DNA from: Thermoplasmata archaeon
GTDB lineage: Archaea > Thermoplasmatota > E2 > DHVEG-1 > B18-G2
DNA length: 40,851 nucleotides
Reading direction: 5' to 3'
Assembly (NCBI GenBank): GCA_021161865.1
Contig: JAGGZU010000124.1
Coordinates: 1 to 40,851, forward strand
The position numbers were made by a program, and so were the translations under genes. Positions 20,113 to 40,851 of the stretch are shown here, one piece after another (position 1 is the stretch's first letter; each line of letters begins with the position of its first letter). The notes under the pieces were generated by a model. It ran no database searches and was not told the origin of the DNA. It saw only the letters and a program-made list of their open reading frames with translations.

Positions 20113-20180
20113 CCAATTCACCCAGCAACCCATGGAATACTCTTTTGAATATAAATGTTGGGAAAACCTATAAATAAACA

Positions 20181-23868: not shown

Positions 23869-24321
23869 CTACTTCCTCAACTCAGACAAAACCATTTCAA
23901 CCGCCCCCGGCACCGCCTCAGCAACCTCCCTGCTGAGCTCCTCCTTAAAAGATGATGCCTCTGATATAGTGATGCCTACAACAACGATCTCAGAAGGCAA
24001 CCTGTTTTCACCCATTTTTTTAGCCAAATCAACTGCTTCCAAAAAACTCATGCCATGCGGATTAGAAGAATGAACGGTTTCGAAATCACTCAAAGTGAAA
24101 CGTTTCACCAAACCCTTTTCTTCACCAACAACGGCATCCACAACAACCGCTTTATCATAACCAAGAATTAAATCAACAAGATTCATACCACCAGTTAAAG
24201 CCTCCTCAAAAAACACTCCTCTGTTTTTCACCCTCCCCCTAAGCCTCCTCACAACATGAATACCTACACCATCATCTCCAAGAATAGGGTTACCAACACC
24301 AACCACAATAGTTTTCCTCAT
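23869..24321 (-). CDS. [NiFe]-hydrogenase maturation endopeptidase (HycI/FrhD/HoxM family)
   Basis: VVGVGNPILGDDGVGIHV is the family signature. It overlaps the mvhA stop by 4 nt. Confidence 0.85.
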   Translation of the reverse strand: MRKTIVVGVGNPILGDDGVGIHVVRRLRGRVKNRGVFFEEALTGGMNLVDLILGYDKAVVVDAVVGEEKGLVKRFTLSDFETVHSSNPHGMSFLEAVDLAKKMGENRLPSEIVVVGITISEASSFKEELSREVAEAVPGAVEMVLSELRK

Positions 24322-26764: not shown

Positions 26765-27177
26765 TGTTCACCCCTCAAAGGATTCGGACCAATCTCCTTT
26801 ATTTCTTCAACAAACTCCTTCACCACGTTAGCAAACTTTTGTCCCTCAGAAGCAGAAACATACTCAAACCTCACCCTCCGAGGATTTATATTAAGCTGCT
26901 GAAGCAACTCCTTAAGCAAAATAACCCTTCTGTTAGCCTTGTAATTACCAGACTGATAATGACAGTCACCAGGGTGACAACCAGCTATAAGCACACCATC
27001 AGCCCCTTTTTTCAACGCTTCAAGCACAAAAACAGGGTCAACCCTCCCAGAGCACATGACCCTAATTGGTTTAACATTAGCAGGATAAATGAGTCTACTT
27101 GTACCAGCGAGATCAGCGCCAGCATAAGCACACCAGTTGCATAAAAAAGCAACAATATTTGGTTCAAAATCGCTCAT
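26761..27177 (-). CDS. mvhD: Methyl-viologen-reducing hydrogenase delta subunit (MvhD, [2Fe-2S])
   Basis: AFLCNWCAYAGADLAG...VMCSGRVDP...GADGVLIAGCHPGDCHY is the MvhD/FlpD signature. Confidence 0.9.
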   Translation of the reverse strand: MSDFEPNIVAFLCNWCAYAGADLAGTSRLIYPANVKPIRVMCSGRVDPVFVLEALKKGADGVLIAGCHPGDCHYQSGNYKANRRVILLKELLQQLNINPRRVRFEYVSASEGQKFANVVKEFVEEIKEIGPNPLRGEQ

Positions 27178-29150
27178 GCTTCACCTCCCAACACATCAAC
27201 CACCGCCAGAATCTGATCGTCCTTGAACCCCTTCTGCTGCATAGCTCCAGATGGACAAGCAGCGACACAACTACCGCATCCCTTACAAAGTGCTTCAACA
27301 ACCCTTGCAACATACTTATTATCCTCTTTTTTCATCAGTTCTATAGCGTTGAAACTACAAACAGAAACACAAGTAGCGCAACCTGAACAAAAATCCTCAT
27401 CAACAAAAGCTATAAGCGGTTCAGCCTCCAACTCCTCCTTAGACAGTATGTTAGCCGCGCGAGATGCTGCTCCACTCGCCTGAGCAACACTATCCTGAAT
27501 ATCCTTAGGACCCTGACAGCAACCAGCTATAAAAATACCATCTGTGAAAGTATCCATTGGTTTAAGCTTAGGATGAGCCTCCAAAAAGAAACCATCGGCA
27601 CCTCTTGACACATGCAGAATCTTACCAAGGTCGGAAGAGTCATTCCTTGGAACAACCGCTGGAACCAAAACAACCAAATCCGTTTTAATCTCAAAAAGCT
27701 TGTTCGTCATCGTATCAAAAACATCAATAGTTAAACCATCCTTCTTCTCTTTCACCTCAGATGGGCGACCTCTGAAAAAGTTTGTTTTAACACCTCTTAT
27801 CCGCCTGTAAAACTCCTCATACCTTTTACCAAAAGAACGAATATCTGTGTAACAAATATTAATCTCAACATCATCACCAAGATGCTCCCTCAAAAGATAA
27901 GCCTGCTTCAAAGCAGTCATACAACCAACACGGCAACACCACGTGCAAACGGTTTCGTCACGTGAACCAACACAAAGAACAAAGGTTACACTCCCCGGCT
28001 TCCTTTGATCAGAGGGACAAACTATTTCACCACCGGTTGGACCAGAAGAACTAATAAGCCTTTCAAGCTCAAGAGTCGTTATAACATCCTTATAACGAGA
28101 ATAACCATACTCGTACAAAGCAGAGGGATCCAGCAGATCATAACCTGTTGCAACCACTATAACTCCAACCTCAAACTCCACCAACTCCTCCCTCTGAGTG
28201 AAATCAATAGCTTCTGCTTCACAAACATCCTGACACGCTGGCGACCTACCACATTTACCGTACCTGAGAAACAAACACTGTTCAGGGTCAATCGTAGCCT
28301 TCAAAGGGATAGCTTGAGGAAATGGTATATAAACAGCACCCCTCTTACCCAGGTTCATGTTGAACTCATCCGGAACCTTACCCTTCATCCTGCAAACATT
28401 AACGCAATCACCGCAACCGGTGCATTTATCAAAATCAACGTACCTTGGTTTCCTAACAACCTTAACCCTGTAGTTTCCAATGCTTCCATCAACACTAACC
28501 ACCTCAGAATAAGCAAATAACTCAATGTTTGGATGATTCTTCACATCCATCATCTTAGGAGTGAGTATACAAGAAGCGCAGTCCAAAGTTGGAAACGTTT
28601 TGTCAAGCTGAGCCATCCTACCCCCTATACTCGGCTCCTTCTCAACAAGATAAACATGGAAACCCTTCTCAGAGAGATCAAGAGACGCCTGAATACCAGC
28701 TATACCACCACCAACAACCAAAGCCTTAGGTGTAACCTTAACCTTCTCCCTAACTAATGGTTCAAGTAGTCTAACCTTCGCAACCGCACCCTTAACAAGC
28801 AACTTAGCTTTCTCCGTAGCCTCCTTTCTATCCGGGTGAACCCATGAACACTGCTCCCTGATGTTAGCGATTTCAAGAACAAAAGGATTTAAACCAGCCT
28901 CCTCAACAACCCTCCTAAAAGTATGCTCATGCATCTGCGGAGAACAACTTGCTACCACAACACCATCCAGTTTAAACTTTTTAATAGACTCCTTGATAAG
29001 GTTTGCACCATTATCGGAACACATGTACTTGTAGCTTTTACTAACCACAACACCATCGAGTTTACCCGCGAAATCAACAACCTCGTCAACGTCAACAGTT
29101 GCAGCAATGTTAACACCACAATGACAAACAAACACACCAATCCTATCCAT
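27174..29150 (-). CDS. hdrA: Heterodisulfide reductase subunit A (FAD, multiple [4Fe-4S]), set 1
   Basis: It has VFVCHCGVNIA, the FAD fingerprint VVGGGIAGIQASLDL, inserted and C-terminal ferredoxin motifs (CTGCGDCVNVC, CSGCATCVSVC, CKGCGSCVAACP), and no in-frame TGA. Confidence 0.9.
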   Translation of the reverse strand: MDRIGVFVCHCGVNIAATVDVDEVVDFAGKLDGVVVSKSYKYMCSDNGANLIKESIKKFKLDGVVVASCSPQMHEHTFRRVVEEAGLNPFVLEIANIREQCSWVHPDRKEATEKAKLLVKGAVAKVRLLEPLVREKVKVTPKALVVGGGIAGIQASLDLSEKGFHVYLVEKEPSIGGRMAQLDKTFPTLDCASCILTPKMMDVKNHPNIELFAYSEVVSVDGSIGNYRVKVVRKPRYVDFDKCTGCGDCVNVCRMKGKVPDEFNMNLGKRGAVYIPFPQAIPLKATIDPEQCLFLRYGKCGRSPACQDVCEAEAIDFTQREELVEFEVGVIVVATGYDLLDPSALYEYGYSRYKDVITTLELERLISSSGPTGGEIVCPSDQRKPGSVTFVLCVGSRDETVCTWCCRVGCMTALKQAYLLREHLGDDVEINICYTDIRSFGKRYEEFYRRIRGVKTNFFRGRPSEVKEKKDGLTIDVFDTMTNKLFEIKTDLVVLVPAVVPRNDSSDLGKILHVSRGADGFFLEAHPKLKPMDTFTDGIFIAGCCQGPKDIQDSVAQASGAASRAANILSKEELEAEPLIAFVDEDFCSGCATCVSVCSFNAIELMKKEDNKYVARVVEALCKGCGSCVAACPSGAMQQKGFKDDQILAVVDVLGGEA

Positions 29151-29167
29151 TCACGCTTCCTCCACTT

Positions 29168-30031
29168 TCAAACCTTCAACTTATCCACAGGGCTGAGATT
29201 CAAATCCAAACCAAGCTTCCTCTCATCCAAACCAAAAGCTAAACCAAGCAGCTGAGTAAGATAAAACACAGGAACCTCCAGTTTAGCAGCAACAGTTTCA
29301 CCAGCCTTCTTCTGCCTTGAATCAAACATCCTCTGACACCATGGACAAACCGTCACCAAACCATCAAAACCATGCTCCTCAACAGCCTGGAGTTTCTGAC
29401 CGGTTTTCGTTAAAGCAGACTCAGGCAGATTAACCAACAACAAACCACCGCAACAATCGAGTTTCTCAGCATAATCCATTGTTTCAGCACCCAAAGCCTC
29501 AAGAACCGCCTCAATCTTCATGGGGTTCTCAGAATCAACAGGTCTACCAATCTCACTTGGTCTAACCAGATGACAACCATAATGTGACGCAATCTTCAAA
29601 CCCTTCAAAGGCTTCTTCACATGTTTTTTAATCTCCTTAACACCAACATGATCATACAATAAATCAACAGTGTGAACAACACCAACTTTACCCTTATACT
29701 CCAGGTCTTCGGAAGCAAGCATCTCGTTAACCCTGCTCCTCATCCCTCCATCGTTGTCTAAAATGTTTTTACATTCACTTAAAGCAAAATGACACACACT
29801 GCAGGGAACAAAAAGATCAAAACCCTGCTGTTCAGCGATCGCAAGATTCCTTGCAGAAAGATACAAAGTCAAAAGCTGATTAATACTTTTCACAGGTTCA
29901 CCGCAACAAGAAAAGTTTTCCACATCAACCAGCTCAACGCCCAACACTGGGAAAACCTCCCTAATAGAAAGCTCGTAACCATACTGCTCCGTCTGCATCA
30001 CACAACCCGGGTACAGAGTATATTTTTTCAT
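29168..30031 (-). CDS. hdrB: Heterodisulfide reductase subunit B with two complete CCG motifs, set 1
   Basis: Motif 1 is PGC...SCCGEP...VPCSVCH. Motif 2 is HYGCH...DCCGG...VCPWCQ. Both fit CXnCCXnCXXC. Confidence 0.9.
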   Translation of the reverse strand: MKKYTLYPGCVMQTEQYGYELSIREVFPVLGVELVDVENFSCCGEPVKSINQLLTLYLSARNLAIAEQQGFDLFVPCSVCHFALSECKNILDNDGGMRSRVNEMLASEDLEYKGKVGVVHTVDLLYDHVGVKEIKKHVKKPLKGLKIASHYGCHLVRPSEIGRPVDSENPMKIEAVLEALGAETMDYAEKLDCCGGLLLVNLPESALTKTGQKLQAVEEHGFDGLVTVCPWCQRMFDSRQKKAGETVAAKLEVPVFYLTQLLGLAFGLDERKLGLDLNLSPVDKLKV

Positions 30032-30043
30032 CTAAACTTCCCC

Positions 30044-30571
30044 TTACACCTTCTCAACAGCCAGTTTAGTCAAAACCATCTGAAACTTAGAAGCATCCTT
30101 TGGTTTAGAAACCCTTGGTAAACCAAGATCTTCTCTCCTCCTCGTTTTCATATCCCGTGTCTGTACCTCCTGAACATCCTGAATCAAACCCATTGACAAA
30201 ATCGACTGAAGCATACTAGTGTAGTTACCAGGAATCTGCTTACCTCCCATAACAGCCAGGTTTTTCAAAGCAAACAAAACATCAACAGGTGAAACCTTCT
30301 GCGGGCAACGTTCCCTGCATTTAAAACAACTCATACAAGTCCAAATAACATCAGAGTTAACCATCTCATCAATCAAACCACGTTTAAGCAAAGCCATAAT
30401 CTTATGAGGCTCAAGCTCAAGAAGCTTATGAGCCTCACAACCAGAAGTACACTTAGCACACTGAAAACAGTAATCAGACAACTCATTCTGAAGCCTCAAC
30501 AACCTATTGTTTATCTCCTCCCTCAACTCAACCTGAGCTTCAGCCATGGACGTCAAATCCTTTATGCTCAT
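30044..30571 (-). CDS. hdrC: Heterodisulfide reductase subunit C (2x[4Fe-4S]), set 1
   Basis: It has CFQCAKCTSGCEA and CMSCFKCRERCPQ. I chose the ATG at 30571, since the track start at 30583 is TTG. Confidence 0.85.
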   Translation of the reverse strand: MSIKDLTSMAEAQVELREEINNRLLRLQNELSDYCFQCAKCTSGCEAHKLLELEPHKIMALLKRGLIDEMVNSDVIWTCMSCFKCRERCPQKVSPVDVLFALKNLAVMGGKQIPGNYTSMLQSILSMGLIQDVQEVQTRDMKTRRREDLGLPRVSKPKDASKFQMVLTKLAVEKV

Positions 30572-30633
30572 GATACCACCCAAAGGGGTTTTTAACAGGT
30601 TTGCTTAAGTACGGTGTTCTCCCATTTATCACA

Positions 30634-30979: not shown

Positions 30980-31452
30980 ATGATGGAATTAAAAAACGAG
31001 TTTATCATGCCACCTACCAAGCTTGGTTACTCCACAGGGGACGGCAAAGTTACAGATAGACATATAAACTTCTATAAAGTTAGAAGTAAACATCTTGGTG
31101 CTATCGCTATCGAACCAATGTATCTAGATAAGGGTTTAAGGGAAATACCCAACCAACTTGGTATAGACAACGATGACAAAATCAAAGGTTTAAAAAACTT
31201 GTTTATGCTGTACATGAAACAGATACAAAGGTTACAAAAATAGATGGTGACAAAATCTATATAGCTGGTAGAGAAAAAGGTGTTTTAGAAGGTGTAAATC
31301 ATATAATAATAGCCACCGGTATGAAAAGTTATAACCCTTTAGAGGAGAAACTTAGAGGTAAACTACCAGTATACGTAATAGGGGATGCCAAACAGGTTGG
31401 TAAAGCAAAGGATGCTATTGAAAGTGCCTTTGATTTAGCAAGTAAACTTTAA
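30980..31452 (+). pseudogene. Decayed NADH:flavin oxidoreductase (Old Yellow Enzyme / 2,4-dienoyl-CoA reductase-type) remnant: N-terminal about 80 codons, a frameshift, then an internal deletion joining to the extreme C-terminus
   Basis: Frame 1 gives MMELKNEFIMPPTKLGYS...HINFYKVRSKHLGAIAIEPMYLD...DDKIKGLKN. After the A6 run (31192-31197) the homologous reading continues in another frame as KKLVYAVHETDTKV. It then runs into ...HIIIATGMKSYNPL...PVYVIGDAKQVGKAKDAIESAFDLASKL, a typical C-terminus of the FAD/NAD domain. Confidence 0.65.
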
Positions 31453-32312
31453 ATTAACCTATCTACGGGACTTAGATTAAGGTTTAAACCCAACCTATCT
31501 GGATTTCTACCCACCGCCAGTCCCACAAGCTGTGTCAAATAGAACACCGGTACATCCAGTTTCTCCCCAATTGTACTCCCTGCCTTCTCTTGTTTCCCAT
31601 CCAAAAGTCTACCACCATAAGGACAAACGATAGCTAGTGCATCAAACCCTCTATCCTTAACCGCCTTCAGTTTCTCCCCGGTTTTTGTAAGAGCAGCCTC
31701 CTTATGAGTAACCATCAATGGTGCACCACAACAGTTCAGTTTCTCAGAGTAATTCCACGTCTCGCCACCAATAGCCTTTATAATCTCCTCCATCTTACTT
31801 GGATGCTCCGCAGCATCCGGTCTACCCGCCTCAGTATATCTAATGGTGTGACAACCATAATGGCAGGCTATCTTCCATTTAACAGGGTTACTAACCTTCT
31901 CCTTTATCCTCTCCACCCCAATTACATCATGCAACAGATCAACTGTGTGATAAATCTCTAAATCACCTCTGTACTCCAAGCCCTCATTTTCCTTCAGTTT
32001 TTTAACAATCTTCTCCCTAAGTTCCTTAGAGTTGTTGAGACGATTTTTTGTCTCAACTAAAGATAAATGACCCAAGGCGCAGGGAACAAACATATCCAAA
32101 CCCTTTTCCTCACATACCGCTATATTCCTAGCAGAAAGATACATCTGCATCAACAGATTAACGCTTCTCAAAGGCGCTCCGCAACAAGAGGTATTTTCCA
32201 AATCAACCAGTTCCACACCAAGATCAGGCAAAACCTCCCTAATGCTCATCTCATAAGCATACTGCTCTGCGGACATCACGCATCCAGGATAAAAACCAAG
32301 TTTTCTAATCAT
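31449..32312 (-). CDS. HdrB-like subunit with degenerate CCG motifs (terminal Cys of both motifs replaced by Gly), set 2
   Basis: It is a collinear 287-aa paralog of hdrB set 1. It has SCCGAP...VPCALGH and NCCGAP...VCPYGGR. I trimmed the track ORF (32522) to the ATG at 32312, because the extension overlaps hdrC2. Confidence 0.85.
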   Translation of the reverse strand: MIRKLGFYPGCVMSAEQYAYEMSIREVLPDLGVELVDLENTSCCGAPLRSVNLLMQMYLSARNIAVCEEKGLDMFVPCALGHLSLVETKNRLNNSKELREKIVKKLKENEGLEYRGDLEIYHTVDLLHDVIGVERIKEKVSNPVKWKIACHYGCHTIRYTEAGRPDAAEHPSKMEEIIKAIGGETWNYSEKLNCCGAPLMVTHKEAALTKTGEKLKAVKDRGFDALAIVCPYGGRLLDGKQEKAGSTIGEKLDVPVFYLTQLVGLAVGRNPDRLGLNLNLSPVDRLI

Positions 32313-32322
32313 TTTTACCGCC

Positions 32323-32853
32323 TCATAGTTTCTCCGCTGCCAGCTGAGAAAGAGCTGACATAAAACCATTAATATTCTTAGGATGGCCCCGCTTCGGTAA
32401 ACCAAGTTTCTCCCTACTCCAACCCTTATTATCCTTATCCAAAACCTCAACAGGTTCCTGTATATACCCTGTTGACAATATTCCCTGCAGCAGGTTTTGA
32501 TAATCTCCAGGTAGCGACCCACCAGACATCACGTACCAGTTTTTAAGGATAAACATCACGTCAACGGGGCTCATCTCCTGAGGACACCTTTCTTTACATT
32601 TAAAGCAGCCAACGCAAGCCCAGATTACATCAGAGTTCATCATCTCATCCAAAAAACCGGTTTTAACAGAAGCCATGACAGAATGAGGTTGAAGCTCAAG
32701 CAGTTTCATAGCCTCACAACCAGAGGTGCACTTGGCACACTGGAAACATAAACTAGGATTCTTTACACCAAGTACAGCCAACTGTCTTATAAGCTCCTTC
32801 TGTTTATCGCCCTCCGGTTTAGACATATTAAATAAATCCGTTAAACCCATCAT
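32323..32853 (-). CDS. hdrC: Heterodisulfide reductase subunit C, set 2
   Basis: It has CFQCAKCTSGCEA and CVGCFKCKERCPQ. By eye it is highly similar to set-1 HdrC. It shares an ATGA overlap with hdrA2. Confidence 0.85.
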   Translation of the reverse strand: MMGLTDLFNMSKPEGDKQKELIRQLAVLGVKNPSLCFQCAKCTSGCEAMKLLELQPHSVMASVKTGFLDEMMNSDVIWACVGCFKCKERCPQEMSPVDVMFILKNWYVMSGGSLPGDYQNLLQGILSTGYIQEPVEVLDKDNKGWSREKLGLPKRGHPKNINGFMSALSQLAAEKL

Positions 32854-35156
32854 TGCACCCCCTTCAAATACTCAGCCATTTCCCTGCAACTCCTCTGAAA
32901 CTTCTGCCCATCAGGTGTAAGAATCTCAACAAAACGAAGCCTGTTAACATCAACACCTTTCTCCTCCAAGATTTCCCTGGCTTTCATGTACTTCTCCTCA
33001 GCAGCCTCAGTACCATCTACATAATGACACAAACCCTTAGGACATGCAAAAATCATCACGCCCTTAGCTCCTTTCTCAAATGGATAAAGAATATCCTCTA
33101 CGCTTAACCTACCCACACAGGGCAGCTTCACCACCTTCACCATTGAAGGATACTCCATCCTGCTTGTACCAGCAATATCAGCAGCATTATAACCACAGGT
33201 TTCAGTGGTATAAGCAATAACAGAATCCGGATCCCCCTCCAATATACCATCAACCTGCGCCCTAAGCTGCGCCTTTGTGAGATGTCTTATCTCTATAGCA
33301 TCCTCAGGGCAAACAGAAACACATTTACCACAACCCTTACAAGCCATATCCACAACTTCATAGCTCTCAGTAATCGCGCCGTACCTACAAGCCTCTCTGC
33401 ACAAACCACATCTTGTACATTTATCTGGATCAATTACTGCAGTGGTTAAATCCACAGTGGCAACATCATCCTTCAATATCGTAGCAACCCGGCTAGCTGC
33501 AGCACCAGCATCGGTTATACTATCCTGAATAGACTTGGGCCCCTCCGCTGTACCAATGATGTAGATTCCCTCAGTTGTTGTATCAACCGGAGCAATCTTA
33601 ACATGCAACGGTGAAAGAAACTTATCCAGCCCATACTGTAAATGCAAAACCTTAGCCATCCTTTTTGTACCCTCAGACGGCTCCAAAGCCGTTGCCAAAA
33701 CAATTAAATCAGATTCAACCCGCATAAACTTATTAGTAGCCTTATCAAACACATCAAAAAACAGTCTACCATCAGGTGTATCCATTATCTGAGAAGGCCT
33801 ACCCATTATCATGTTGATATTCTTCTCACGGGCAAGAGCATAATACTCCTCATTCCTACGACCAGGTGCCCTAATATCTATGTAACACATGTTTATAGTA
33901 GCATCCGGAAACTTAGCACGCATAATCTTAGCGTTTTTAATAGAATACATACAGCAGATGTTGGAACAGTACTCCTTATGTCTCTTATCCCTTGAACCAG
34001 CACACTGAATAAAAGTGATGGTTTTCGGTTCCCTACCATCAGAAGGACACACAACTTTACCACCGGTTGGACCGGATGGAACAATCATCCTCTCCAGTTC
34101 CAAACCAGTTATAACATCAGGGTGCTCATAATAGTACTCAGTATTACTCAGATCAGTCTGCTGATAACCTGTTGCAACAACTATGGCCCCAACCTTAAGT
34201 TCCCTCCTCTCCTTTTTCTGATTGAAATCCACAGCATCAGCCGGACAAACCTTTTCACATATCCCACATACACCCTTGTTGATTTTTAAACAGGCCTCCT
34301 CTTCTATGAAAGCAGCGTTTGGAACAGAACCATCAAATGGTATATGAATAGCCTTTGTTTTATCTAAACCAAGATTGTAGTTGTTTGGAATAGATACTGG
34401 GCATTTCTCAGTACATAACCCGCAGGCTGTACATCTATCCAAATCAACGTACCTTGGTTTAGTTTCAACAGTAACATTGTAATCCCCAACTCTCCCAGAT
34501 AGACCAACAACCTCAGACAAGGTTAAAAGCTCTATATTTGGATGAGCTTTAACCTCATTCATTATAGGCGAAACCGTGCACATGGAGCAGTCATCGGTGG
34601 GAAAGGTTCTACCAAGTTTCGTCATGTTTCCACCAATGGACGCTTCCTTCTCAACAAGATAAACATGGAAACCCTTGTCTGCAAGTTCAAGAGATGCATG
34701 CATTCCCGCTATACCAGCACCTATAACAAGAACATCCCTATTAACAGGCACATCCACAGTACCTATAGGCTCATGATGCTGAACCTTATTAATGGCTCCT
34801 TTGATAATAGAATAAGCCTTCTTAGTAGCCTCCTCCCTGTCAGAGTGTACCCAGGAACAATGCTCCCTGATGTTAGCCATCTCAAACATGTAAGCATTCA
34901 GTTTCTGCTTCACACAATCCTTAAAAATATTCCAATGATGCTTAGGGGAACAACTGGCAATAACCAGTCTATCCACATCCTTGTTTTTATCCAAAGTATC
35001 AAGAATCATCTGCTGCCCTGCTTCCGAGCAGAGAAACATGTGATTCTTAACAACAAGGTTTTTATCCTTAGAAAACTCCTTTTTAAGTTTCTCAATATCC
35101 ACCGTTGCAGCTATGTTGTCCCCACAATGACATAGAAAGACTGCTGTTTTACCCAT
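32850..35156 (-). CDS. hdrA: HdrA fused to a C-terminal MvhD domain, set 2
   Basis: The HdrA core has VFLCHCGDNIA, VIGAGIAGMHASLEL and several ferredoxin motifs. The last roughly 130 aa are MvhD-like (TETCGYNAADIAGTSR...LPCVGRLS...GAKGVMIFACPKGLCHY). Confidence 0.85.
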   Translation of the reverse strand: MGKTAVFLCHCGDNIAATVDIEKLKKEFSKDKNLVVKNHMFLCSEAGQQMILDTLDKNKDVDRLVIASCSPKHHWNIFKDCVKQKLNAYMFEMANIREHCSWVHSDREEATKKAYSIIKGAINKVQHHEPIGTVDVPVNRDVLVIGAGIAGMHASLELADKGFHVYLVEKEASIGGNMTKLGRTFPTDDCSMCTVSPIMNEVKAHPNIELLTLSEVVGLSGRVGDYNVTVETKPRYVDLDRCTACGLCTEKCPVSIPNNYNLGLDKTKAIHIPFDGSVPNAAFIEEEACLKINKGVCGICEKVCPADAVDFNQKKERRELKVGAIVVATGYQQTDLSNTEYYYEHPDVITGLELERMIVPSGPTGGKVVCPSDGREPKTITFIQCAGSRDKRHKEYCSNICCMYSIKNAKIMRAKFPDATINMCYIDIRAPGRRNEEYYALAREKNINMIMGRPSQIMDTPDGRLFFDVFDKATNKFMRVESDLIVLATALEPSEGTKRMAKVLHLQYGLDKFLSPLHVKIAPVDTTTEGIYIIGTAEGPKSIQDSITDAGAAASRVATILKDDVATVDLTTAVIDPDKCTRCGLCREACRYGAITESYEVVDMACKGCGKCVSVCPEDAIEIRHLTKAQLRAQVDGILEGDPDSVIAYTTETCGYNAADIAGTSRMEYPSMVKVVKLPCVGRLSVEDILYPFEKGAKGVMIFACPKGLCHYVDGTEAAEEKYMKAREILEEKGVDVNRLRFVEILTPDGQKFQRSCREMAEYLKGVQ

Positions 35157-35163: not shown

Positions 35164-35553
35164 TCAACCCCTATCTTCCACCTCTTTAGCAGGTATAGGA
35201 TCTTTAATAACATCAGATGAATTAAAGGTGGATAAAAAGAAGTTTTTTGTAAGCTTTATAGCGCCAGTTGGACAAATGTCCTCACAAAGAGCACAAAAAC
35301 AACATTTACCTATATCCACCCTTGGATATTTCTTAGGATATTTCTCCTTATATTTCTCTGGTGCTTCAACCATATCTATGGCCTTATTTGGACATATCTT
35401 AGCGCAAAGATTACATGATATGCATTTGTCTACATCGTAACTATGCTCCCCTCTGTATCCATCCGGTATTGGATTAGACTCATGTGGAAACCTGGTTGTG
35501 ATGGGTTTAGAAACCATATTTTTTAATATTTTAGGGACTACCTTCATCTTCAT
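35164..35553 (-). CDS. NuoI / HycF / MbhN-type 2x[4Fe-4S] ferredoxin subunit
   Basis: It has GYRGEHSYDVDKCISCNLCAKICPNKAI and DIGKCCFCALCEDICPTGAIKLT. The length and spacing are typical of the TYKY-type subunit. Confidence 0.75.
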   Translation of the reverse strand: MKMKVVPKILKNMVSKPITTRFPHESNPIPDGYRGEHSYDVDKCISCNLCAKICPNKAIDMVEAPEKYKEKYPKKYPRVDIGKCCFCALCEDICPTGAIKLTKNFFLSTFNSSDVIKDPIPAKEVEDRG

Positions 35554-35559: not shown

Positions 35560-36681
35560 TCACCTATCGATATCAGCTGGGCATCCATTTAAACTCCAGT
35601 ATATCGCTGGTACATCAGCTATCTGTGCATCCCTCAATAGAAACTCTAAAACCGGTATAATATGCAGAAAACTTGGTCCTCGAATCTTTACTCTATATGG
35701 TTTGATTCCACCATCGCTAACCATATACACCCCTGCTTCCCCTCTTCCAATCTCATTCCTAATATATGCCTCACCTTCAGGTATCTTCATATTGAGTTTT
35801 GGTTTGCTAAACTCTTTTGCTATAAAATCTCCATCAGGTAAGTCTTTCAAAGCCTGTTTTATAATACCTACCGATTGTTCCATCTCCTCCAATCCTATTT
35901 GAAACCTTGCATAGGCGTCTCCTTCTTTTCTAACAGGTATCTCGAAATCAAATCTATCATACACCTCATATGGTTCTTCTTTCCTAACATCCGTCTTCAA
36001 ACCACTGGCTCTTAAAACAGGTCCTGTCGCACCTAACCTTATCGCATCCTTCAGATTCAATATACCTACGTCTTTTAATCTAGCTAGATTTGCAGGGTTT
36101 TCTGCTCTCTCAAAATCTATCATCTTCCCTATTTTATCCAAGACATTCAGTATCTTTTCCTCCGCTGATTCCGGCAAATCCCTTCTAACGCCACCAGGGC
36201 ATATATACCCTGCAGGATAAACTCTTCCACCAGTTATTAACTCAAACAAATCAAGTATAAAATCCCTGTAACCAAACGCCAGTTTGAACCCCGTATCAAA
36301 ACCTGTGCCAATTGAGATAATTCCATACCATATAAGATGAGACTGTATCCTGGACAACTCTGCCATTATAACCCGTATATATTTTGCTCTTTCAGGTACC
36401 TCCACACCCATCAACTCATCTACAGCCTCAGCGTGTACAAGATTCCAAGCCAAGGATTCGAGTACGCATATTCTATCAGATAAAACAGCATTTTGTAGAG
36501 GCAACCTATACTCCATTAATTTCTCAAAACCTCTATGCAGATACCCTGGATCTGCCCTCGCAGATACTATCCTCTCTCCATCCACTTTAAGCTTAACAGA
36601 GAAGTTACCGGAGCCAGGATGAGCTGGACCAAAGAACAACTCATAGGTATCATCATCTATCTTCTCCATAGTTCCCTGCAT
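35560..36681 (-). CDS. NuoD / group-4 [NiFe]-hydrogenase large-subunit-like protein retaining only 2 of the 4 Ni-Fe cysteine ligands
   Basis: It has FGPAHPGSG, GYLHRGFEKLME and a C-terminal ...GCPADIDR. The L1 position reads RICVLES (CxxE) and the L2 position reads NGCPADIDR (CxxD). The start was set to the ATG at 36681, 1 nt after the nuoC-like stop; the track start at 36789 overlaps nuoC by 107 nt. Confidence 0.8.
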   Translation of the reverse strand: MQGTMEKIDDDTYELFFGPAHPGSGNFSVKLKVDGERIVSARADPGYLHRGFEKLMEYRLPLQNAVLSDRICVLESLAWNLVHAEAVDELMGVEVPERAKYIRVIMAELSRIQSHLIWYGIISIGTGFDTGFKLAFGYRDFILDLFELITGGRVYPAGYICPGGVRRDLPESAEEKILNVLDKIGKMIDFERAENPANLARLKDVGILNLKDAIRLGATGPVLRASGLKTDVRKEEPYEVYDRFDFEIPVRKEGDAYARFQIGLEEMEQSVGIIKQALKDLPDGDFIAKEFSKPKLNMKIPEGEAYIRNEIGRGEAGVYMVSDGGIKPYRVKIRGPSFLHIIPVLEFLLRDAQIADVPAIYWSLNGCPADIDR

Positions 36682-36682
36682 T

Positions 36683-37201
36683 TCAGTCCCTCCCAAAATA
36701 GGCTGATTCTCTATCATTATCTTTGCTGTAATACTCATTTCTAACGTATTCTCTCCAATCAAAGTCCTTCCTAAATGGAGCTGGTCCATCCCAATCCTCT
36801 AAGAAGAGAGGTGATAAATCGGGATTTCCCTTGAATTTAACTCCAAACAGCTCATGCATCTCCCTCTCATGTATCTGAGAACTTTCACCCCATATTTTAG
36901 AAACGGTTTCAATCTCTGGATTTTCCCTATCTACCATCGTTTTAATGGTTATAAGGATTTTATCATCATAAGACCATATATGATAGGTTAACTCGTATTC
37001 TCCTTTTTTAGGCCAATCTGTTACAGAGAGGGCGGACAGATGTTTAAAACCAAGCTTATTTTTTACAAACATACATAAATCAATCAAATCCTCTGACGGA
37101 GACTTCACCCATATCCTTCTTTCTCTCTGAATCCCTACGTCCACCTTGAAATTTTTGGTTATATTCTCTATGATTTCCTTCTCTCTCACCGACTCAACCA
37201 T
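36683..37201 (-). CDS. NuoC / 30-kDa subunit-like protein
   Basis: LSALSVTDW...YELTYHIWS...SKIWGESSQIHEREMHELFGVKFKGNPD is the Complex1_30kDa signature. Confidence 0.8.
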   Translation of the reverse strand: MVESVREKEIIENITKNFKVDVGIQRERRIWVKSPSEDLIDLCMFVKNKLGFKHLSALSVTDWPKKGEYELTYHIWSYDDKILITIKTMVDRENPEIETVSKIWGESSQIHEREMHELFGVKFKGNPDLSPLFLEDWDGPAPFRKDFDWREYVRNEYYSKDNDRESAYFGRD

Positions 37202-37202: not shown

Positions 37203-37637
37203 TTACTTCATCTCCTCTACATGTTTGAAGATCTTTCCAACCGCCTCAAATACTGCCTCTGGTCTAGGTGGACAACCCGGTATATACATTGTAACTGGCA
37301 GATAATCCTCCAATCTTTTTATTGTGTTATATGAATCCCAGTACATACCGCCCGTCATAGTACATGAACCCAGTGCGATTACCACCTTTGGCTCAGACGT
37401 CTGCTCATATATCCTCTGCGCTCTTTTGATTGATTTTAAAGTCTGATACCCCGCAATGAATAAAACATCTGCATGCCTAGGGTTTCCTACAACAATTATG
37501 CCAAATCTCTCCATATCCCATCTGGATCCAACAAGGGGAACCAACTCGCAGAATCCACAAGAGTTAAACCAGTTAAAAACCCATATCGCCTTTATAAGCC
37601 TCTTCATAACCTTTTTTTGTGGAGATTCCTCACTCAT
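37203..37637 (-). CDS. NuoB / group-4 hydrogenase small-subunit-like protein ([4Fe-4S], CxxC type)
   Basis: It has SCGFCE, GSCTMTGG and IPGCPPRPE. I chose the ATG at 37637, since the track start at 37667 is GTG. Confidence 0.8.
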   Translation of the reverse strand: MSEESPQKKVMKRLIKAIWVFNWFNSCGFCELVPLVGSRWDMERFGIIVVGNPRHADVLFIAGYQTLKSIKRAQRIYEQTSEPKVVIALGSCTMTGGMYWDSYNTIKRLEDYLPVTMYIPGCPPRPEAVFEAVGKIFKHVEEMK

Positions 37638-37715
37638 TTTATTGCCTTCTTTCAATTTTGTGTACACCCATTCAACATATCAATATCTAAGCCTCATCAG
37701 AGATTTTTTTCCAAT

Positions 37716-38669
37716 CTAACTCATCTTCTCCTTAACCGCATTCGTCAACTTAGGTAGAACCTCATAGAGGTCTCCCACAATACCATAGTCGGCGGATTTA
37801 AATATTAATGCTTCAGGATCCTTGTTTATCGCAACCACCACATCCGAGTCACGCATACCAGCTATATGCTGAATCTGACCAGAAATACCAACAGCAATGT
37901 AAAGCTTCGGTTTAACCTTATGCCCAGATAAACCAATCCAATGATCCTCAGACAACCATTTCAGATCAGCAGCAATCGGTCGAGAACAACCGGTTGTTCC
38001 CCTTAACACCTTGGCCAGCTCCTCCACCAATTGTATATCCTCTTTTTTCTTGAACCCTCTACCACAGGAAACAATGATTTCAGCGTCCTCAACATTCACT
38101 TCACCGGTTTTCATCTCCTTAACGTCAACAATCCTTGAAGGATACCTATCCACCTTCACCTCTTTTTTAATCACCTCCCCAGCTCTACTCTCATCTTCTG
38201 GGAGAGGGTCAAAAACCTTAGGAGGTATGGTAACAACAGCGGGTTTAGAGTTAAACCGTTCAACAGCAATGGCGTTACCACTGTAAACCACTCTCTCAGT
38301 GGTAAGTTTCCCATCCTTTACGTAAAGGTTTATGCAGTCTATCACACAACCTGTGTCAAGCTTTGCAGCTAGACGGGAGGCAAGCTCTTTACCGTTTTTA
38401 GTGGAACCGACAATAACAACCTCCTCGTTGGTTTCCTCAAGAATCTTCTCCATCGCGTCAGTGTACTCCTCGCCCTTGAATGTGTTCAACCCTGTTTTAA
38501 CCATGAAAACCCTGTCGGCACCATGCATTATATATTTTTTAGCCAAGCTTTCATCATCAGTGTCAAACACTACAGCAGTAGCCTTCTCATCCAACTCCTT
38601 GGAAACATCCTTGGCCTTAGCTATCAACTCAAGCATGTTTTTTTCATCATCAGAGTAAACAAGCACCAT
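37716..38669 (-). CDS. etfA: Electron transfer flavoprotein alpha subunit
   Basis: The C-terminal FAD-binding block is IVSCGRG...PKLYIAVGISGQIQHIAGMRDSDVVVAINKDPEALIFKSADYGIVGDLYEVLP. Confidence 0.85.
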   Translation of the reverse strand: MVLVYSDDEKNMLELIAKAKDVSKELDEKATAVVFDTDDESLAKKYIMHGADRVFMVKTGLNTFKGEEYTDAMEKILEETNEEVVIVGSTKNGKELASRLAAKLDTGCVIDCINLYVKDGKLTTERVVYSGNAIAVERFNSKPAVVTIPPKVFDPLPEDESRAGEVIKKEVKVDRYPSRIVDVKEMKTGEVNVEDAEIIVSCGRGFKKKEDIQLVEELAKVLRGTTGCSRPIAADLKWLSEDHWIGLSGHKVKPKLYIAVGISGQIQHIAGMRDSDVVVAINKDPEALIFKSADYGIVGDLYEVLPKLTNAVKEKMS

Positions 38670-38675: not shown

Positions 38676-39440
38676 TCACCTCAAAACACCCTCTTTAGCA
38701 AGACTATCAACCAGTTTCTCCACAGCCTCATCAACATCATCCTGATAAACAATGTTTTTCCTCTCCATAGAAACCCCTTTAACCTCAACCGTTTCCATCT
38801 TAGGAGTAAGCTCCTTCACACCAAGCGACTCCATACTCCACTCATTGATTGGTTTGTTAGCAGAGGCAAGTATCTGCATAAGACTGGGTAACCTGGGTTC
38901 ATTAATCTCTTTAGTAACCGTTATAAGCACAGGGTATGGTGACTCCATTGTTACAACAACATCACCCACATCCCTTTCAGCAACAACCTTATCCTTCTCA
39001 GCATCAACCTTCCTGGCGTATGTTATCTGAGGAATCCCAAGAAGACCTGCTAACCTCGGTCCCATCTGACCAGAAAACAAGTCAATTGATGCCTCCCCAC
39101 CAAGTACAATATCATAGTCTCCTATCTTCTTTATCGCAGCAGCCAACAACTTAGACACCACATCATAATCAGCGTTCTCAGGTGCAGAAACTATCACAGC
39201 CTCATCAGCACCCATAGCAAGTAGCTCCTTAACCCTCTCCTTAGCGTCGGATGAACTAACGGTTAAAACCGTGACCTTACCGCCATGTTTCTCCTTTATT
39301 CTTATTGCCTCCTCCACAGCGTTTTTATCGATATCACTTATCTTCAAAGGAACACCCTGCAACACCGGCTTCTTAGTGCTGGGGTCAACCTTGATCTCAG
39401 ACACATCAATAACCTGCTTCGCACAAACAACTATATTCAT
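38676..39440 (-). CDS. etfB: Electron transfer flavoprotein beta subunit
   Basis: MNIVVCAKQVIDVSE...DKNAVEEAIRIKEK...DIVLGGEASIDLFSGQMGPRLAGLLGIPQITY...INEPRLPSLMQI is typical EtfB. Confidence 0.85.
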   Translation of the reverse strand: MNIVVCAKQVIDVSEIKVDPSTKKPVLQGVPLKISDIDKNAVEEAIRIKEKHGGKVTVLTVSSSDAKERVKELLAMGADEAVIVSAPENADYDVVSKLLAAAIKKIGDYDIVLGGEASIDLFSGQMGPRLAGLLGIPQITYARKVDAEKDKVVAERDVGDVVVTMESPYPVLITVTKEINEPRLPSLMQILASANKPINEWSMESLGVKELTPKMETVEVKGVSMERKNIVYQDDVDEAVEKLVDSLAKEGVLR

Positions 39441-40851
39441 AGCCTAACCTCCATACCTTTCCTCTTCATCTCCAACTCCCTTAACTCCTTTCTCTTTATC
39501 TTACCGCTCTGCGTCTTAGGCAGCTCCTCAACAAACTCAATCTCCCTAGGATACTTGTAGGGTGCAGCATTCTCCTTCATAAACCGTTGAATATCCTTAA
39601 CCATCTCATCACCTGGTTCAAACTCCTCATTAAGTATAACAAATGCTTTAACAATCACACCCCTCATCTTGTCAGGGCTTGCAACCACTGCAGCTTCAAG
39701 AACAGCAGGATGCTCAATGAGAGCACTCTCCACCTCAAAAGGCGAAACCCTGTAACCAGCGGTCATAATAAGGTCATCACCACGAGCGGCAAACCAATAA
39801 TAACCCTCCTCATCCATGTAAACGGTGTCACCGGTTAAAAACCAACCGTTTTTAAAAGCCTCCCTTGTTTTATCAGGTTTATTCCAGTACTCAAGGAAAA
39901 GCCCAGGGTCATCATCTTGCACAGCAAGAGTACCAAGTTCACCAGGTTTAACAGGGTTACCTTTTTCATCAACAACCCCGCAGACATGACCGGGCTGAGG
40001 CTTACCACATGAACCCGGTTTAATCGGCAAACCAGGCATGTTTGAAAGATAAACCATGACCTCAGTCATACCGATACCATCATATATTGTTACACCAAAC
40101 CGTTTCTTCCACGCCTGAATAACCTCAGGGTTAAGTGGTTCACCAGCACTAATACAATGCCTAAGCTCAGATAAATCATACTTTTTCTCTGCATCCTTAA
40201 CCGTGAGAAACATTCTATACGCTGTGGGAACCGAGGCAAGATTAGTCACGCGGTATTTCTCAAGCAAAGAAAACCATTTCTCAGGATCAAACCTGCCATC
40301 ATAAAGTAAAACAGATGCTGCATGACGCCAGGCATAAATAAAAGCGTTACCCAACGGATAAATCCAGCTGAGAGCACCAGTATGAGCAACAATATCATCA
40401 GGTTTATAGACCTGCCAGTACAAAGCGTTTGGATCGTTACCAATAGCCCAACGATGAGCATGAACTGCACCCTTCGGCATACCCGTTGTTCCACTCGTGT
40501 AACAGAAAAACGCCATGTCATCAGGTTTAGTATCAGCCACCTTAAGGTGATGAGAAGCGTTTTTCATCAAATCATAAAACGAAAGTTGATCTTTCTCTGC
40601 ATCCCCGACAACAATGATATGTTTCAATGTTGGACAGGAATGTTTTACCTCCTCTACCTCCTTAACATACTCTGGTGTGGTCACAGCAAGAACCGCTGCA
40701 CTATCATTAATCCTGTACTCCACCTCCTTAGCTTTAAACATCACACTACTTGGAATAGGAACAGCACCAATTTTCACACCACCCAAAAAAACCATCTGGA
40801 ACTCAGGGACATTTGGTAAACGTATTAGAAAACGATCACCCTTTTTAACAC
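39437..40851 (-). CDS. AMP-dependent acyl-CoA synthetase/ligase, 5'-partial (continues beyond the window edge)
   Basis: It has FCYTSGTTGMPKGAVHAH, YDGIGMTE, GDTVYMDEEGYYWFAARGDDLI and PKTQSGKIKR. The reading frame stays open upstream of the first ATG (..VKKGDRFLIRLPNVPEFQ MVFLGG..), so the true start lies outside the window. Confidence 0.85.
   Translation of the reverse strand, partial: VKKGDRFLIRLPNVPEFQMVFLGGVKIGAVPIPSSVMFKAKEVEYRINDSAAVLAVTTPEYVKEVEEVKHSCPTLKHIIVVGDAEKDQLSFYDLMKNASHHLKVADTKPDDMAFFCYTSGTTGMPKGAVHAHRWAIGNDPNALYWQVYKPDDIVAHTGALSWIYPLGNAFIYAWRHAASVLLYDGRFDPEKWFSLLEKYRVTNLASVPTAYRMFLTVKDAEKKYDLSELRHCISAGEPLNPEVIQAWKKRFGVTIYDGIGMTEVMVYLSNMPGLPIKPGSCGKPQPGHVCGVVDEKGNPVKPGELGTLAVQDDDPGLFLEYWNKPDKTREAFKNGWFLTGDTVYMDEEGYYWFAARGDDLIMTAGYRVSPFEVESALIEHPAVLEAAVVASPDKMRGVIVKAFVILNEEFEPGDEMVKDIQRFMKENAAPYKYPREIEFVEELPKTQSGKIKRKELRELEMKRKGMEVRL

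Follow-up and report, generated by a model that had tools for sequence, protein, structure and literature searches.

The window analysed here is a 40,851-nt stretch of DNA from a Thermoplasmata archaeon (contig JAGGZU010000124.1, assembly GCA_021161865.1). It carries two sets of genes for HdrABC-type subunits. Set 2 lies in an operon with genes for an electron-transfer flavoprotein (ETF), a NuoB-C-D-I-like module and an acyl-CoA synthetase. The relevant features are as follows.

29168..30031, minus strand: hdrB1, all-cysteine paralog and internal reference, within hdrC1-B1-A1-mvhD-G-A-hycI (23869-30583)
31449..32312, minus strand: hdrB2, HdrB paralog of 287 aa; two CCG domains, each with Gly in place of the final (bridging) Cys (MCD6469051.1)
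31614..31616, minus strand: Gly233 codon GGT, matching bridging Cys234 of the C-terminal (proximal) non-cubane cluster
32070..32072, minus strand: Gly81 codon GGT, matching bridging Cys81 of the N-terminal (distal) non-cubane cluster
32323..32853, minus strand: hdrC2, two [4Fe-4S] motifs with all 8 Cys intact and no extra Cys
32850..35156, minus strand: hdrA2, HdrA with a fused C-terminal MvhD (FlpD) domain (PF02662, residues 646-765; NF040770 HdrA2, 859 bits)
35164..35553, minus strand: NuoI/FpoI-like 2x[4Fe-4S] ferredoxin subunit (TIGR01971, 113.7 bits)
35560..36789, minus strand: NuoD/FpoD-like subunit without a NiFe site (N-terminal CxxC absent; C-terminus NGCPADIDR)
36683..37201, minus strand: NuoC/FpoC-like subunit
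37203..37667, minus strand: NuoB-like subunit with the cluster motif SCGFCE...GSC...GCPP
37716..38669, minus strand: etfA, ETF alpha subunit, whose nearest solved relatives are bifurcating-type ETFs
38676..39440, minus strand: etfB, ETF beta subunit
39437..40851, minus strand: AMP-forming acyl-CoA synthetase (ACS), 5' end cut by the window edge; 545 aa in near-identical contigs

In the window and in three near-identical contigs (L091, L092 and L094), the genes are arranged on one strand with short gaps in the order ACAD-ACS-EtfB-EtfA-NuoBCDI-HdrA/MvhD-HdrC-HdrB2. The acyl-CoA dehydrogenase (ACAD) gene, which precedes the ACS gene in the near-identical contigs, falls just beyond the edge of the window. 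The genes hdrA2, hdrC2 and hdrB2 are contiguous, and only 10 nt separate the end of the upstream hdrC2 from the ATG of hdrB2. The reading frame of hdrB2 is unbroken, in agreement with the initial annotation, which described the gene as intact and tightly coupled to hdrC2. The mechanical list gives a 357-aa open reading frame with a GTG start, which arises artefactually from read-through on the upstream side; the homologs all begin at the ATG at 32312. The open reading frame of the NuoD-like gene overlaps nuoC at its start, and its ortholog in L091 is called as 385 aa; the real start probably lies further downstream. The NuoB-like and NuoD-like proteins both lack a NiFe site, and the absence of the NiFe cysteines from the NuoD-like protein rules out the NuoBCD-like module as a hydrogenase. 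No membrane domain is found in the hdrB2 operon, HdrC2 being a separate protein, and no thiol-cofactor or sulfur-carrier genes are found in this operon in the window lineage. The ETF of the window resembles bifurcating ETFs; such a bifurcating-like ETF could serve the acyl-CoA dehydrogenase independently of Hdr.

The motif of HdrB, CXnCCXnCXXC, occurs twice and provides ten cysteines that have been described as "perfectly conserved" (PMC13261682). The translation of HdrB2 contains VPCALGH, with Gly81, and VCPYGGR, with Gly233, so that the final cysteine of both CCG motifs is replaced by Gly, as the initial annotation had reported. Specifically, the codons are GGT at 32072-32070 (ccc tgc gcc ttg GGT cat) and GGT at 31616-31614 (tgt cct tat GGT ggt aga), each separated from TGT by one T-to-G transversion. 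In the phmmer alignment to the solved HdrB of M. thermolithotrophicus (5odc_B; E = 1e-50), Gly81 is opposite Cys81, and Gly233 is opposite Cys234. The remaining 8 of the 10 motif cysteines (C11, C43, C44, C78, C154, C194, C195 and C230) are in register with the solved protein, consistent with the earlier reading that the CC pairs and the leading cysteines are kept. PF02754 (CCG) matches HdrB2 in two stretches with E = 7e-19. The AF2 model of HdrB2 has a pLDDT of 89.5 and superimposes on 5odc_B with TM of 0.89 and rmsd of 2.3 Å, which indicates that the predicted fold is of the HdrB type and intact.

HdrB1 shares 55% identity with HdrB2 and has all ten cysteines, with VPCSVCH and VCPWCQ at the corresponding positions. 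HdrB1 scores 233 bits against TIGR03288, the curated NCBIfam equivalog for methanogen HdrB, below the cut-off of 345 bits, and HdrB2 scores 204 bits. The host organism is probably a non-methanogen, and "canonical" CoM/CoB chemistry has no firm basis for set 1 either.

The substitutions recur outside the window. We compared 150 HdrB-like representatives clustered at 50% identity. The ten cysteines are complete in 137 of them, and the window protein is the only one in which both final cysteines are missing. In the corresponding 90% cluster, which comprises the window protein and nine others drawn from NCBI, JGI, ENA and Logan assemblies, both Gly are present in 10/10 members; both are also present in relatives of 79-80% identity (P0002-P0004, L007 and L088). 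The Gly codons vary synonymously among the relatives (GGT/GGA at 81, GGT/GGC at 233). A metagenome scan for double-Gly loci yielded five loci and no new long contigs. Although a single T-to-G change would suffice to turn TGT into either Gly codon by sequencing or assembly error, the same residues are found in at least 15 independent sequences from varied samples and assemblers with synonymous codons, and the intact frame is under strong purifying selection. Error, or a pseudogene, is thereby ruled out, and we assign it a negligible probability.

Pairwise dN/dS values in the clade range from 0.05 to 0.14. Across a divergence down to 53% identity, the clade keeps the eight remaining motif cysteines at 100% conservation, and neither the CCG glycines nor the flanking residues vary. 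No replacement residue other than Gly was seen at either position among the sequences compared, which points to a particular steric demand and away from relaxed constraint. Because the Gly residues are kept in relatives, dN/dS is low, the eight cysteines are invariant and the operon is conserved, the sequence record indicates that HdrB2 is a functional variant under selection, and that its sites are adapted rather than decaying, as had been proposed. The same conservation bears on the possibility that HdrB2 is degenerate, has lost one or both clusters, and survives only because HdrC2 and HdrA2 need a structural partner to stay folded. In other family members, the distal cluster shrinks or is destroyed when a cysteine ligand is lost: Thr in EtfD leads to a linear [3Fe-4S] cluster, and Ser in BamD leads to a [3Fe-4S] cluster. 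Folding of HdrC requires HdrB in M. acetivorans (PMC5296606); nevertheless, invariance of the eight cluster cysteines and their surroundings, together with the low dN/dS, makes degeneration very improbable.

The two substitutions differ in age. Of the 122 closest sequences, 59 carry the C-terminal Gly, which also occurs in five further places, namely P0071, which is nested in an all-cysteine clan, and the distant P0121, P0125, P0137 and P0235. Gly81 is held by HdrB2, P0001-P0004, L007, L088 and the 90% cluster, plus two distant representatives. The C-terminal CxxG is old and marks a large Thermoplasmatota HdrB lineage, while the N-terminal CxxG is recent and belongs to one sublineage. Given the limits of their rooting, neighbour-joining (NJ) trees are compatible with either one or two origins of the C-terminal Gly at the base of the Thermoplasmatota family. 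The initial annotation treated the two changes as the same substitution in both repeats; the positions are indeed equivalent, but the changes are not one concerted event.

The genomic neighbours were compared across Gly-type and all-cysteine HdrBs. NuoBCD-like genes are conserved partners of the CPxGG clade of hdrB2, whereas Etf adjacency within this clade is confined to the window's own lineage: the sister loci L001, L008, L010, L016 and L098 have NuoBCDI-HdrACB with Etf not nearby. Related Gly-type HdrBs with CPWG[HQ] lie in beta-oxidation/Etf clusters at 14 of 18 unique loci, and P0137, a distant CxxG HdrB, adjoins ACAD, EtfBA and HdrA. Etf/ACAD genes also adjoin all-cysteine HdrBs (9/54). 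Etf linkage is neither universal nor exclusive to Gly-type HdrBs, and the association of the N-terminal Gly with Etf represents a single lineage. A strict rule that CxxG means Etf-linked is ruled out by the Etf-less CPxGG sisters and by the all-cysteine HdrBs beside Etf/ACAD. The co-occurrence of CxxG with Etf and NuoBCD-like genes, for which a survey had been suggested, holds across the clade for the NuoBCD-like genes and in the window lineage for Etf. A literature search for CxxG HdrBs in Thermoplasmatota or NuoBCDI-Hdr operons found no earlier description among the papers it covered.

Cys81 and Cys234 of HdrB are bridging cysteines on the catalytic iron and are moved away on substrate binding (PMC13083937). 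In canonical HdrB, the bridging cysteine caps the reactive iron and swings off when CoM-S or CoB-S binds. In the ETF:menaquinone oxidoreductase (EMO) of Syntrophus aciditrophicus, the residue equivalent to "C81 in HDR" is G535, and inorganic sulfide fills the site; the resulting non-cubane [4Fe:5S] cluster is non-catalytic and receives electrons from the ETF flavin (bioRxiv 10.64898/2026.08.18.745454). By analogy, the small Gly residues of HdrB2 would make space for a non-protein ligand, most likely an extra inorganic sulfide, and both clusters would become closed one-electron relays instead of a disulfide-splitting site. The redox partner at the HdrB2 end would be EtfAB from the same operon. 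Electrons could move between acyl-CoA/enoyl-CoA, ETF, HdrB2, HdrC2 and the HdrA2 flavin in either direction, with confurcation or bifurcation with ferredoxin at the flavin, and a third partner at HdrA2 might be reached via the fused MvhD domain and the NuoB-C-D-I-like module.

Overall, we consider the chances about even that HdrB2 is not a heterodisulfide reductase but exchanges electrons with ETF at one end of an HdrA-type complex that bifurcates or confurcates. The initial suggestion that set 2 lacks the standard CoM-S-S-CoB chemistry fits the literature, given the loss of Cys81 and Cys234 and the EMO precedent, but is still an inference. A fuller version is offered tentatively. It places two sulfide-completed [4Fe:5S]-type clusters at the ETF-docking end of an undescribed soluble Etf-Hdr-Nuo(BCDI) bifurcating or confurcating complex, which in anaerobic Thermoplasmatota would link ferredoxin and a complex-I-like Q-module to the oxidation of acyl-CoA or the reduction of enoyl-CoA; HdrB2 would then be the first HdrABC-type subunit without the bridging cysteine at both clusters. 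All relatives characterised so far have a canonical proximal cluster, and the EMO preprint emphasises that this cluster is conserved in HDR and in the EMOs studied to date (bioRxiv 10.64898/2026.08.18.745454). The structural precedent is limited to the N-terminal (distal) site, and the Gly at Cys234 has no solved counterpart.

HdrB2 has kept the CCG signature, the HdrB fold and the four other ligands of each cluster, which would also suit a protein that is still catalytic on sulfur or disulfides. The special iron would then be permanently "open" for lack of the bridging cysteine, and the site would be tuned to another substrate, such as the disulfide of an unknown thiol, a persulfide, a polysulfide or a protein-bound disulfide. 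Substrate binding, which gives the "open" state, displaces the bridging cysteine in any case. The residue at position 80 differs between clades (Leu in GG, Gln in CPxGG, Met in all-cysteine); as EMO/EtfD have a His there that caps the proximal cluster, the sites of HdrB2, with Leu80 and no cap, may stay open. Etf is not nearby at most loci of the CPxGG clade, and the NuoD-like and NuoB-like partners without NiFe are, we presume, similar to sulfane-reducing MBS-type modules. In addition, DsrK, in which Asp often replaces the last CCG cysteine, remains catalytic (PMC10861901) and reduces the DsrC trisulfide. However, the sole solved protein with the Cys81-to-Gly change has sulfide in the site and carries out electron transfer, and a free coordination site on the iron of both clusters would probably be unstable. 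Moreover, the operon has ETF, acyl-CoA dehydrogenase and CoA ligase genes and lacks those for a thiol cofactor or sulfur carrier. We therefore regard a catalytic HdrB2 as unlikely, though a serious alternative.

Normal five-cysteine clusters and normal chemistry would be kept if Cys67 and Cys150 supplied the missing ligands. Cys150 (ACHYGC) is present in 39/39 CPxGG- and GG-type sequences and in 0/63 all-cysteine sequences, while Cys67 is present in 5/5 GG-type, ~70% of other Gly-type and 5/63 all-cysteine sequences. Cys67 is, however, already found in relatives that still have Cys81; it predates the loss and did not arise to replace Cys81. Cys150 is present in just 8 of 20 CPWG[HQ] sequences, which also lack Cys234. 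In the AF2 model, Cys150 is inside the strand 147-151, four residues ahead of Cys154, and Cys67 is near the far end of the helix 53-69, whereas the lost residues are in the first turn of the helices starting at 79 and 231, beside the clusters. From this predicted secondary structure, Cys67 and Cys150 are expected to be >10 Å from the vacant sites, and compensation by these residues is very improbable.

The five-cysteine CCG motif has been treated as an invariant hallmark of heterodisulfide reductase, and for this reason genes including hdrB2 are annotated as CoB-CoM heterodisulfide reductase. The present comparison indicates that a large, selected HdrB lineage of non-methanogenic Thermoplasmatota gave up the cysteine that gates the reactive iron, and that one sublineage did so at both clusters. 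Together with two 2026 preprint structures in which HdrB-like domains with altered clusters act as ETF-fed relays, CxxG could serve as a marker that separates "wire" from catalytic Hdr modules in metagenomes. HdrB2 is a natural test case for whether the [4Fe:5S] form is open to the proximal cluster as well. It also offers a candidate for the long-unknown partner of non-methanogen Hdr complexes, namely ETF and acyl-CoA metabolism instead of an unknown heterodisulfide. If true, metabolic models of abundant sediment archaea would change.

HdrB2 resembles the methanogen HdrBs (M. thermolithotrophicus 5ODC, M. marburgensis 8RVU and M. hungatei 7BKB) in length, in its two CCG domains and in predicted fold, with 33% identity, and set 2 has a separate 2x[4Fe-4S] HdrC and an adjacent HdrA, as in methanogen HdrABC. 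In contrast to the methanogen proteins, both Cys81 and Cys234 are Gly, and position 80 is Leu, not Gly. Other differences concern the complex: an MvhD domain is fused to the HdrA of the window, the MvhAG hydrogenase is replaced in set 2 by the NuoB-C-D-I-like module without NiFe, and ETF and acyl-CoA genes are in the set-2 operon. HdrA2 of Methanosarcina acetivorans HdrA2B2C2 likewise has HdrA fused to MvhD, and in NCBIfam the HdrA2 of the window matches it best. Unlike the window protein, M. acetivorans HdrB2 has both cysteine motifs complete, and it reduces CoM-S-S-CoB.

DsrK of DsrMKJOP, like HmcF and TmcB, has a single CCG cluster, and its replacement residue can still ligate iron. The complex that contains DsrK is bound to the membrane, and its substrate is the DsrC trisulfide. 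HdrB2 has two CCG motifs instead of one and no GECGH motif, which carries the catalytic cysteine of DsrK.

A PDB search with the HdrB2 sequence or profile returned methanogen HdrBs only; EtfD surfaced by fold comparison alone, with TM of 0.62 to the Mycobacterium smegmatis protein (9OJN). Residue equivalences to EMO, EtfD and BamD were taken from the papers' own numbering against M. thermolithotrophicus HdrB. The Cys81-to-Gly change at the distal cluster of S. aciditrophicus EMO (SaEMO) has a sequence equivalent in HdrB2 at Gly81, and HdrB2 has a further one at Gly233. EMO clusters relay electrons from the ETF flavin in association with beta-oxidation, and the window lineage, but not its sister loci, has a genomic link to EtfAB and acyl-CoA dehydrogenase as in the EMO/EtfD type. 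EMO differs from set 2 in being a single membrane protein with HdrC-like, HdrB-like and heme-b domains, in which HdrA and bifurcation are absent. It also has a proximal cluster with five cysteines and a His cap (H534 in SaEMO, H583 in MsEMO) at the residue directly preceding the final Cys/Gly of motif one.

In the class II benzoyl-CoA reductase, the HdrBC-like BamD occurs with the HdrA-type BamE and an MvhD-like adaptor; the distal cluster of BamD is modified, its heterodisulfide pocket is filled, and ETF, the high-potential partner, docks at its two non-cubane clusters (bioRxiv 10.64898/2026.04.10.717634). In contrast to HdrB2, BamD is an HdrB-HdrC fusion with a Cys-to-Ser change, a [3Fe-4S] cluster and a canonical proximal cluster, and it works with a tungsten ring reductase and a HydABC-like module. 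In Geobacter metallireducens BamBCDEFGHI, the HdrBC-like module is at the high-potential end, with the bifurcating flavoprotein BamE and the adaptor BamF, and set 2 likewise combines an HdrBC-like module with an HdrA-like flavoprotein and an MvhD-like adaptor.

HdrB2, the set-2 paralog, carries glycine in place of the last cysteine of both CCG motifs. The gene and its set-1 counterpart are:

31449-32312, minus strand: hdrB2, 287 aa, two CCG domains
29168-30031, minus strand: hdrB1, paralog 55% identical to HdrB2, with FVPCSVCH and VCPWCQ

The motif stretches of HdrB2 translate as FVPCALGHLSL and AIVCPYGGRLLD. Both Gly codons, at 32072-32070 and 31616-31614, read GGT in the DNA, where the initial annotation had placed them, and each is a single transversion away from TGT. 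Translation starts at the ATG at 32312, as in HdrB2 homologs, with the hdrC2 stop 10 nt before. A 357-aa ORF with a GTG start from a mechanical listing was rejected as the hdrB2 gene, because it is an upstream read-through and homologs begin at the ATG. The database record is MCD6469051.1, 'CoB--CoM heterodisulfide reductase iron-sulfur subunit B family protein [Thermoplasmata archaeon]'.

The only solved structures matched by HdrB2 (phmmer) are methanogen HdrBs (9sfi_C, 5odc_B, 8rvu_b, and 7bkb_B; E = 1e-40 to 1e-51). In the alignment with 5odc_B, the Methanothermococcus thermolithotrophicus protein, Gly81 and Gly233 lie opposite the bridging cysteines Cys81 and Cys234. C11, C43, C44, C78, C154, C194, C195, and C230 align with the remaining eight ligands. 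Because Gly81 and Gly233 replace the Cys81 and Cys234 equivalents, the ligand gating the reactive iron is gone from both clusters. The five motif cysteines were termed 'perfectly conserved' in a 2026 study of Hdr substrates (PMC13261682). The AF2 model of HdrB2 (32 homologs as input; mean pLDDT 89.5) superimposes on 5odc_B with a TM-score of 0.89 and RMSD of 2.3 Å.

Both glycines are present in 10/10 members of the HdrB2 90% cluster, which come from independent NCBI, JGI, ENA, and Logan assemblies, and in relatives of 79-80% identity (P0002-P0004, L007, and L088), where synonymous codons are used (GGT/GGA at position 81, GGT/GGC at 233). Sequencing error or a pseudogene is thus extremely improbable. 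Pairwise dN/dS in the double-Gly clade is 0.14 at 94% identity and 0.05-0.11 where dS is still measurable, and the eight remaining motif cysteines are invariant. These values indicate a functional protein under purifying selection, consistent with the initial proposal of an adapted site rather than random decay. They also argue against a degenerate subunit with a structural role, which we regard as unlikely.

Among the 122 closest sequences (the best 120 database matches plus the two window paralogs), 63 have all ten cysteines (one with a truncated N-terminus), 54 have only the C-terminal CxxG, at identities down to 53%, and five have both, namely the window protein and P0001-P0004. In an unrooted neighbor-joining (NJ) tree built with the two variable columns masked, an all-Cys clan is apart from the Gly-type sequences, which comprise a CP[YFL]GG clade, containing HdrB2, and CPWG[HQ] clades. 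P0071 has a separate Gly nested within the all-Cys clan. The double-Gly sequences form a single small clade, sister to the 15-member P0005 cluster (CPQC and CPYGG). Rooting with distant representatives groups the whole Thermoplasmatota family into a single clade, in which the CPxGG sequences branch as sister to (CPWG[HQ] + all-Cys). Given its short branches, the rooted tree is compatible with one or two origins of the C-terminal Gly.

In a wider sample of 150 representatives (28-47% identity), 137 have all ten cysteines, the C-terminal Gly appears in four more and the N-terminal Gly in two, and none of the 150 is double-Gly. The replacing residue is Gly in every case among the 122 and 150 sequences; the Cys-to-Gly change is recurrent and specific. 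Judged from the NJ tree, the C-terminal change in HdrB2 is old and the N-terminal one recent. Thus, the same substitution noted at first in both repeats is present and conserved, but the two instances differ in age.

Residues near the clusters change together with the C-terminal Gly at four further positions: 46 (CCG-E to CCG-A), 193 (D-CCG to N-CCG), 249 (A to G), and 80 (Met to Gln, with Leu in the double-Gly clade). The codon for position 80 occupies 32073-32075 of the window; its residue directly precedes the last Cys/Gly of the first motif, and position 232 was noted together with it. At position 80, EMO/EtfD has a His capping the proximal cluster, methanogen HdrB has Gly, and Thermoplasmatota proteins carry Met in the all-Cys type, Gln in the CPxGG type, and Leu in the double-Gly type. 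All Thermoplasmatota HdrBs, HdrB1 included, may have a partly filled CoM pocket. Gained cysteines could in principle compensate for the lost ligands, since every CPxGG-clade member has Cys150 and no all-Cys HdrB does. Against this, Cys150 is inside strand 147-151, and Cys67, on the far end of helix 53-69, is older than the loss of Cys81; we consider compensation very doubtful.

HdrB2 is encoded in the following operon:

39437-40851, minus strand: acyl-CoA synthetase, AMP-forming, truncated at the window end (L091 and L092 have 545 aa)
38676-39440, minus strand: EtfB
37716-38669, minus strand: EtfA
37203-37667, minus strand: NuoB-like
36683-37201, minus strand: NuoC-like
35560-36789, minus strand: NuoD-like, without NiFe cysteines
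35164-35553, minus strand: NuoI-like
32850-35156, minus strand: HdrA with fused MvhD
32323-32853, minus strand: HdrC2

L091/L094 (QMSQ01000002.1) and L092, contigs near-identical to the window, carry an acyl-CoA dehydrogenase (ACAD) gene directly upstream of the synthetase, beyond the window edge, and the same downstream set 1 (HdrC1-B1-A1-MvhD-G-A-HycI-DUF6125-HpaB/AbfD-like). All of the closest solved relatives of EtfA/EtfB are bifurcating-type (CarDE 6FAH, Bcd-Etf 5OL2, LctBC 7QH2, 4KPU, and 7KOE) and outscore the human and Paracoccus ETFs, which are non-bifurcating, so two flavin-based bifurcation modules may be combined in this operon. Where NuoB has a tandem CC motif, the NuoB-like protein carries the hydrogenase-like CxxC SCGFCE. 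The NuoD-like protein lacks the N-terminal NiFe cysteines and retains one Cys at its C-terminus (NGCPADIDR). An 87-aa ORF at 30980-31243 (plus strand), between hdrB2 and hdrC1, resembles the N-terminus of Old Yellow Enzyme/enoate reductase; an identical ORF in L091 has a weak Oxidored_FMN match, and it is probably a conserved gene remnant.

We classified HdrB type and flanks at 80 loci, nearly all Thermoplasmatota, scanning one genome per GTDB species. The CPxGG clade has a conserved unit, NuoB-C-D-I-HdrA/MvhD-HdrC-HdrB, in the window and in L001, L008, L010, L016, and L098. The stand-alone NuoB-C-D-I-like set is always in one operon with this Hdr set, and membrane Nuo/Fpo genes are absent within 10 kb at all six loci. 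Within this clade, Etf is found in the window lineage only; the association of the N-terminal Gly with Etf is from one lineage.

The CPWG[HQ] type is in beta-oxidation clusters in 14/18 unique loci, typically ordered ACAD-EtfBA-thiolase-hydroxyacyl-CoA dehydrogenase-enoyl-CoA hydratase-HdrC-HdrB-HdrA(-MvhD-G-A)-acetyl-CoA synthetase. A full butyrate-type beta-oxidation set with HdrC-HdrB-HdrA immediately after it, and often MvhD-G-A and acetyl-CoA synthetase as well, is found in L004/L032 (1-17000), L006/L021, L034, L055, L059, L067, L068, and L080; several of these loci are from saline or soda-lake samples. By gene content, they resemble a confurcating Hdr-Mvh hydrogenase that is fed by ETF and serves the syntrophic oxidation of fatty acids. 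P0137, a distant C-terminal-Gly HdrB (37% identity; CPHGGE), lies beside ACAD and a divergent EtfB-EtfA-HdrA-LarA (lactate racemase-like) unit (L090, 8001-13948), which may be a further ETF-Hdr system with a different substrate.

All-Cys HdrBs are mostly with MvhADG or alone. Etf/ACAD is adjacent in 9/54, in a basal clade. HdrBs of this basal type (FVPCPMC...CPWCH/S) lie directly downstream of EtfB-EtfA and near ACAD in L022, L023, L025, L027, L039, L041, L065, and L073; Etf-Hdr coupling in Thermoplasmatota is therefore not confined to Gly variants. In raw locus counts, which ignore kinship, Etf linkage is enriched in Gly-type HdrBs, neither universal nor exclusive.

By analogy, we propose, at about an even chance, that an HdrA-type bifurcating/confurcating complex has HdrB2 as its electron-transfer end, facing ETF. 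Each Gly would free space for a non-protein ligand, with sulfide the most plausible one, turning reactive open-iron clusters into closed relays, with disulfide chemistry lost. Electrons would pass between acyl-CoA/enoyl-CoA, ACAD, ETF, HdrB2, HdrC2, and HdrA2-FAD, where they would be coupled with ferredoxin and a third partner via the MvhD domain and NuoBCDI-like module. The genes would fit acyl-CoA oxidation in which ferredoxin helps drive electrons to a mid-potential acceptor; they would likewise fit enoyl-CoA reduction as the exergonic branch. Nearby, 21819-23276 encodes an AbfD-like dehydratase and 19339-20133 an enoyl-CoA hydratase; these candidate assignments suggest crotonyl-CoA metabolism in the surroundings of both Hdr sets. 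The former, a 485-aa HpaB-family protein, is a putative 4-hydroxybutyryl-CoA dehydratase; with the DUF6125 protein (together 21819-23809, minus strand) it follows set-1 Hdr-Mvh-HycI in the same orientation and is kept in L091.

HdrB2 could instead still be catalytic, with sites that stay open at all times and are adapted to a different sulfur substrate. The missing His cap, the sister loci without adjacent Etf, and DsrK, which often has Asp for the final CCG cysteine (PMC10861901), favor this reading, which we hold to be a less probable but serious one.

Fold, domain content, and operon make HdrB2 an HdrB homolog. However, it lacks the ten-cysteine signature and falls below the curated equivalog score, and therefore should not be filed as CoB-CoM heterodisulfide reductase. 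No description of CxxG HdrBs or NuoBCDI-Hdr operons was found in the searchable literature. In Syntrophus aciditrophicus EMO, where Gly likewise replaces the Cys81 equivalent, the outcome is a [4Fe:5S] cluster, and the ETF flavin docks approximately equidistant from both clusters (bioRxiv 10.64898/2026.08.18.745454); its authors regard the proximal cluster as the part common to HDR and the EMOs characterised so far. In class II benzoyl-CoA reductase (cryo-EM/ET), the HdrA-type bifurcating flavoprotein BamE and MvhD-like adaptor BamF accompany HdrBC-like BamD, whose heterodisulfide pocket is filled and distal cluster altered. With residue equivalence taken from the cited papers' own numbering, HdrB2 probably works like these non-cubane-cluster domains. 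It belongs to neither family, since it has a separate HdrC, no heme domain, and no His cap, and its proximal cluster is also altered. What is genuinely new here is this proximal-cluster Gly, which a large Thermoplasmatota lineage conserves.
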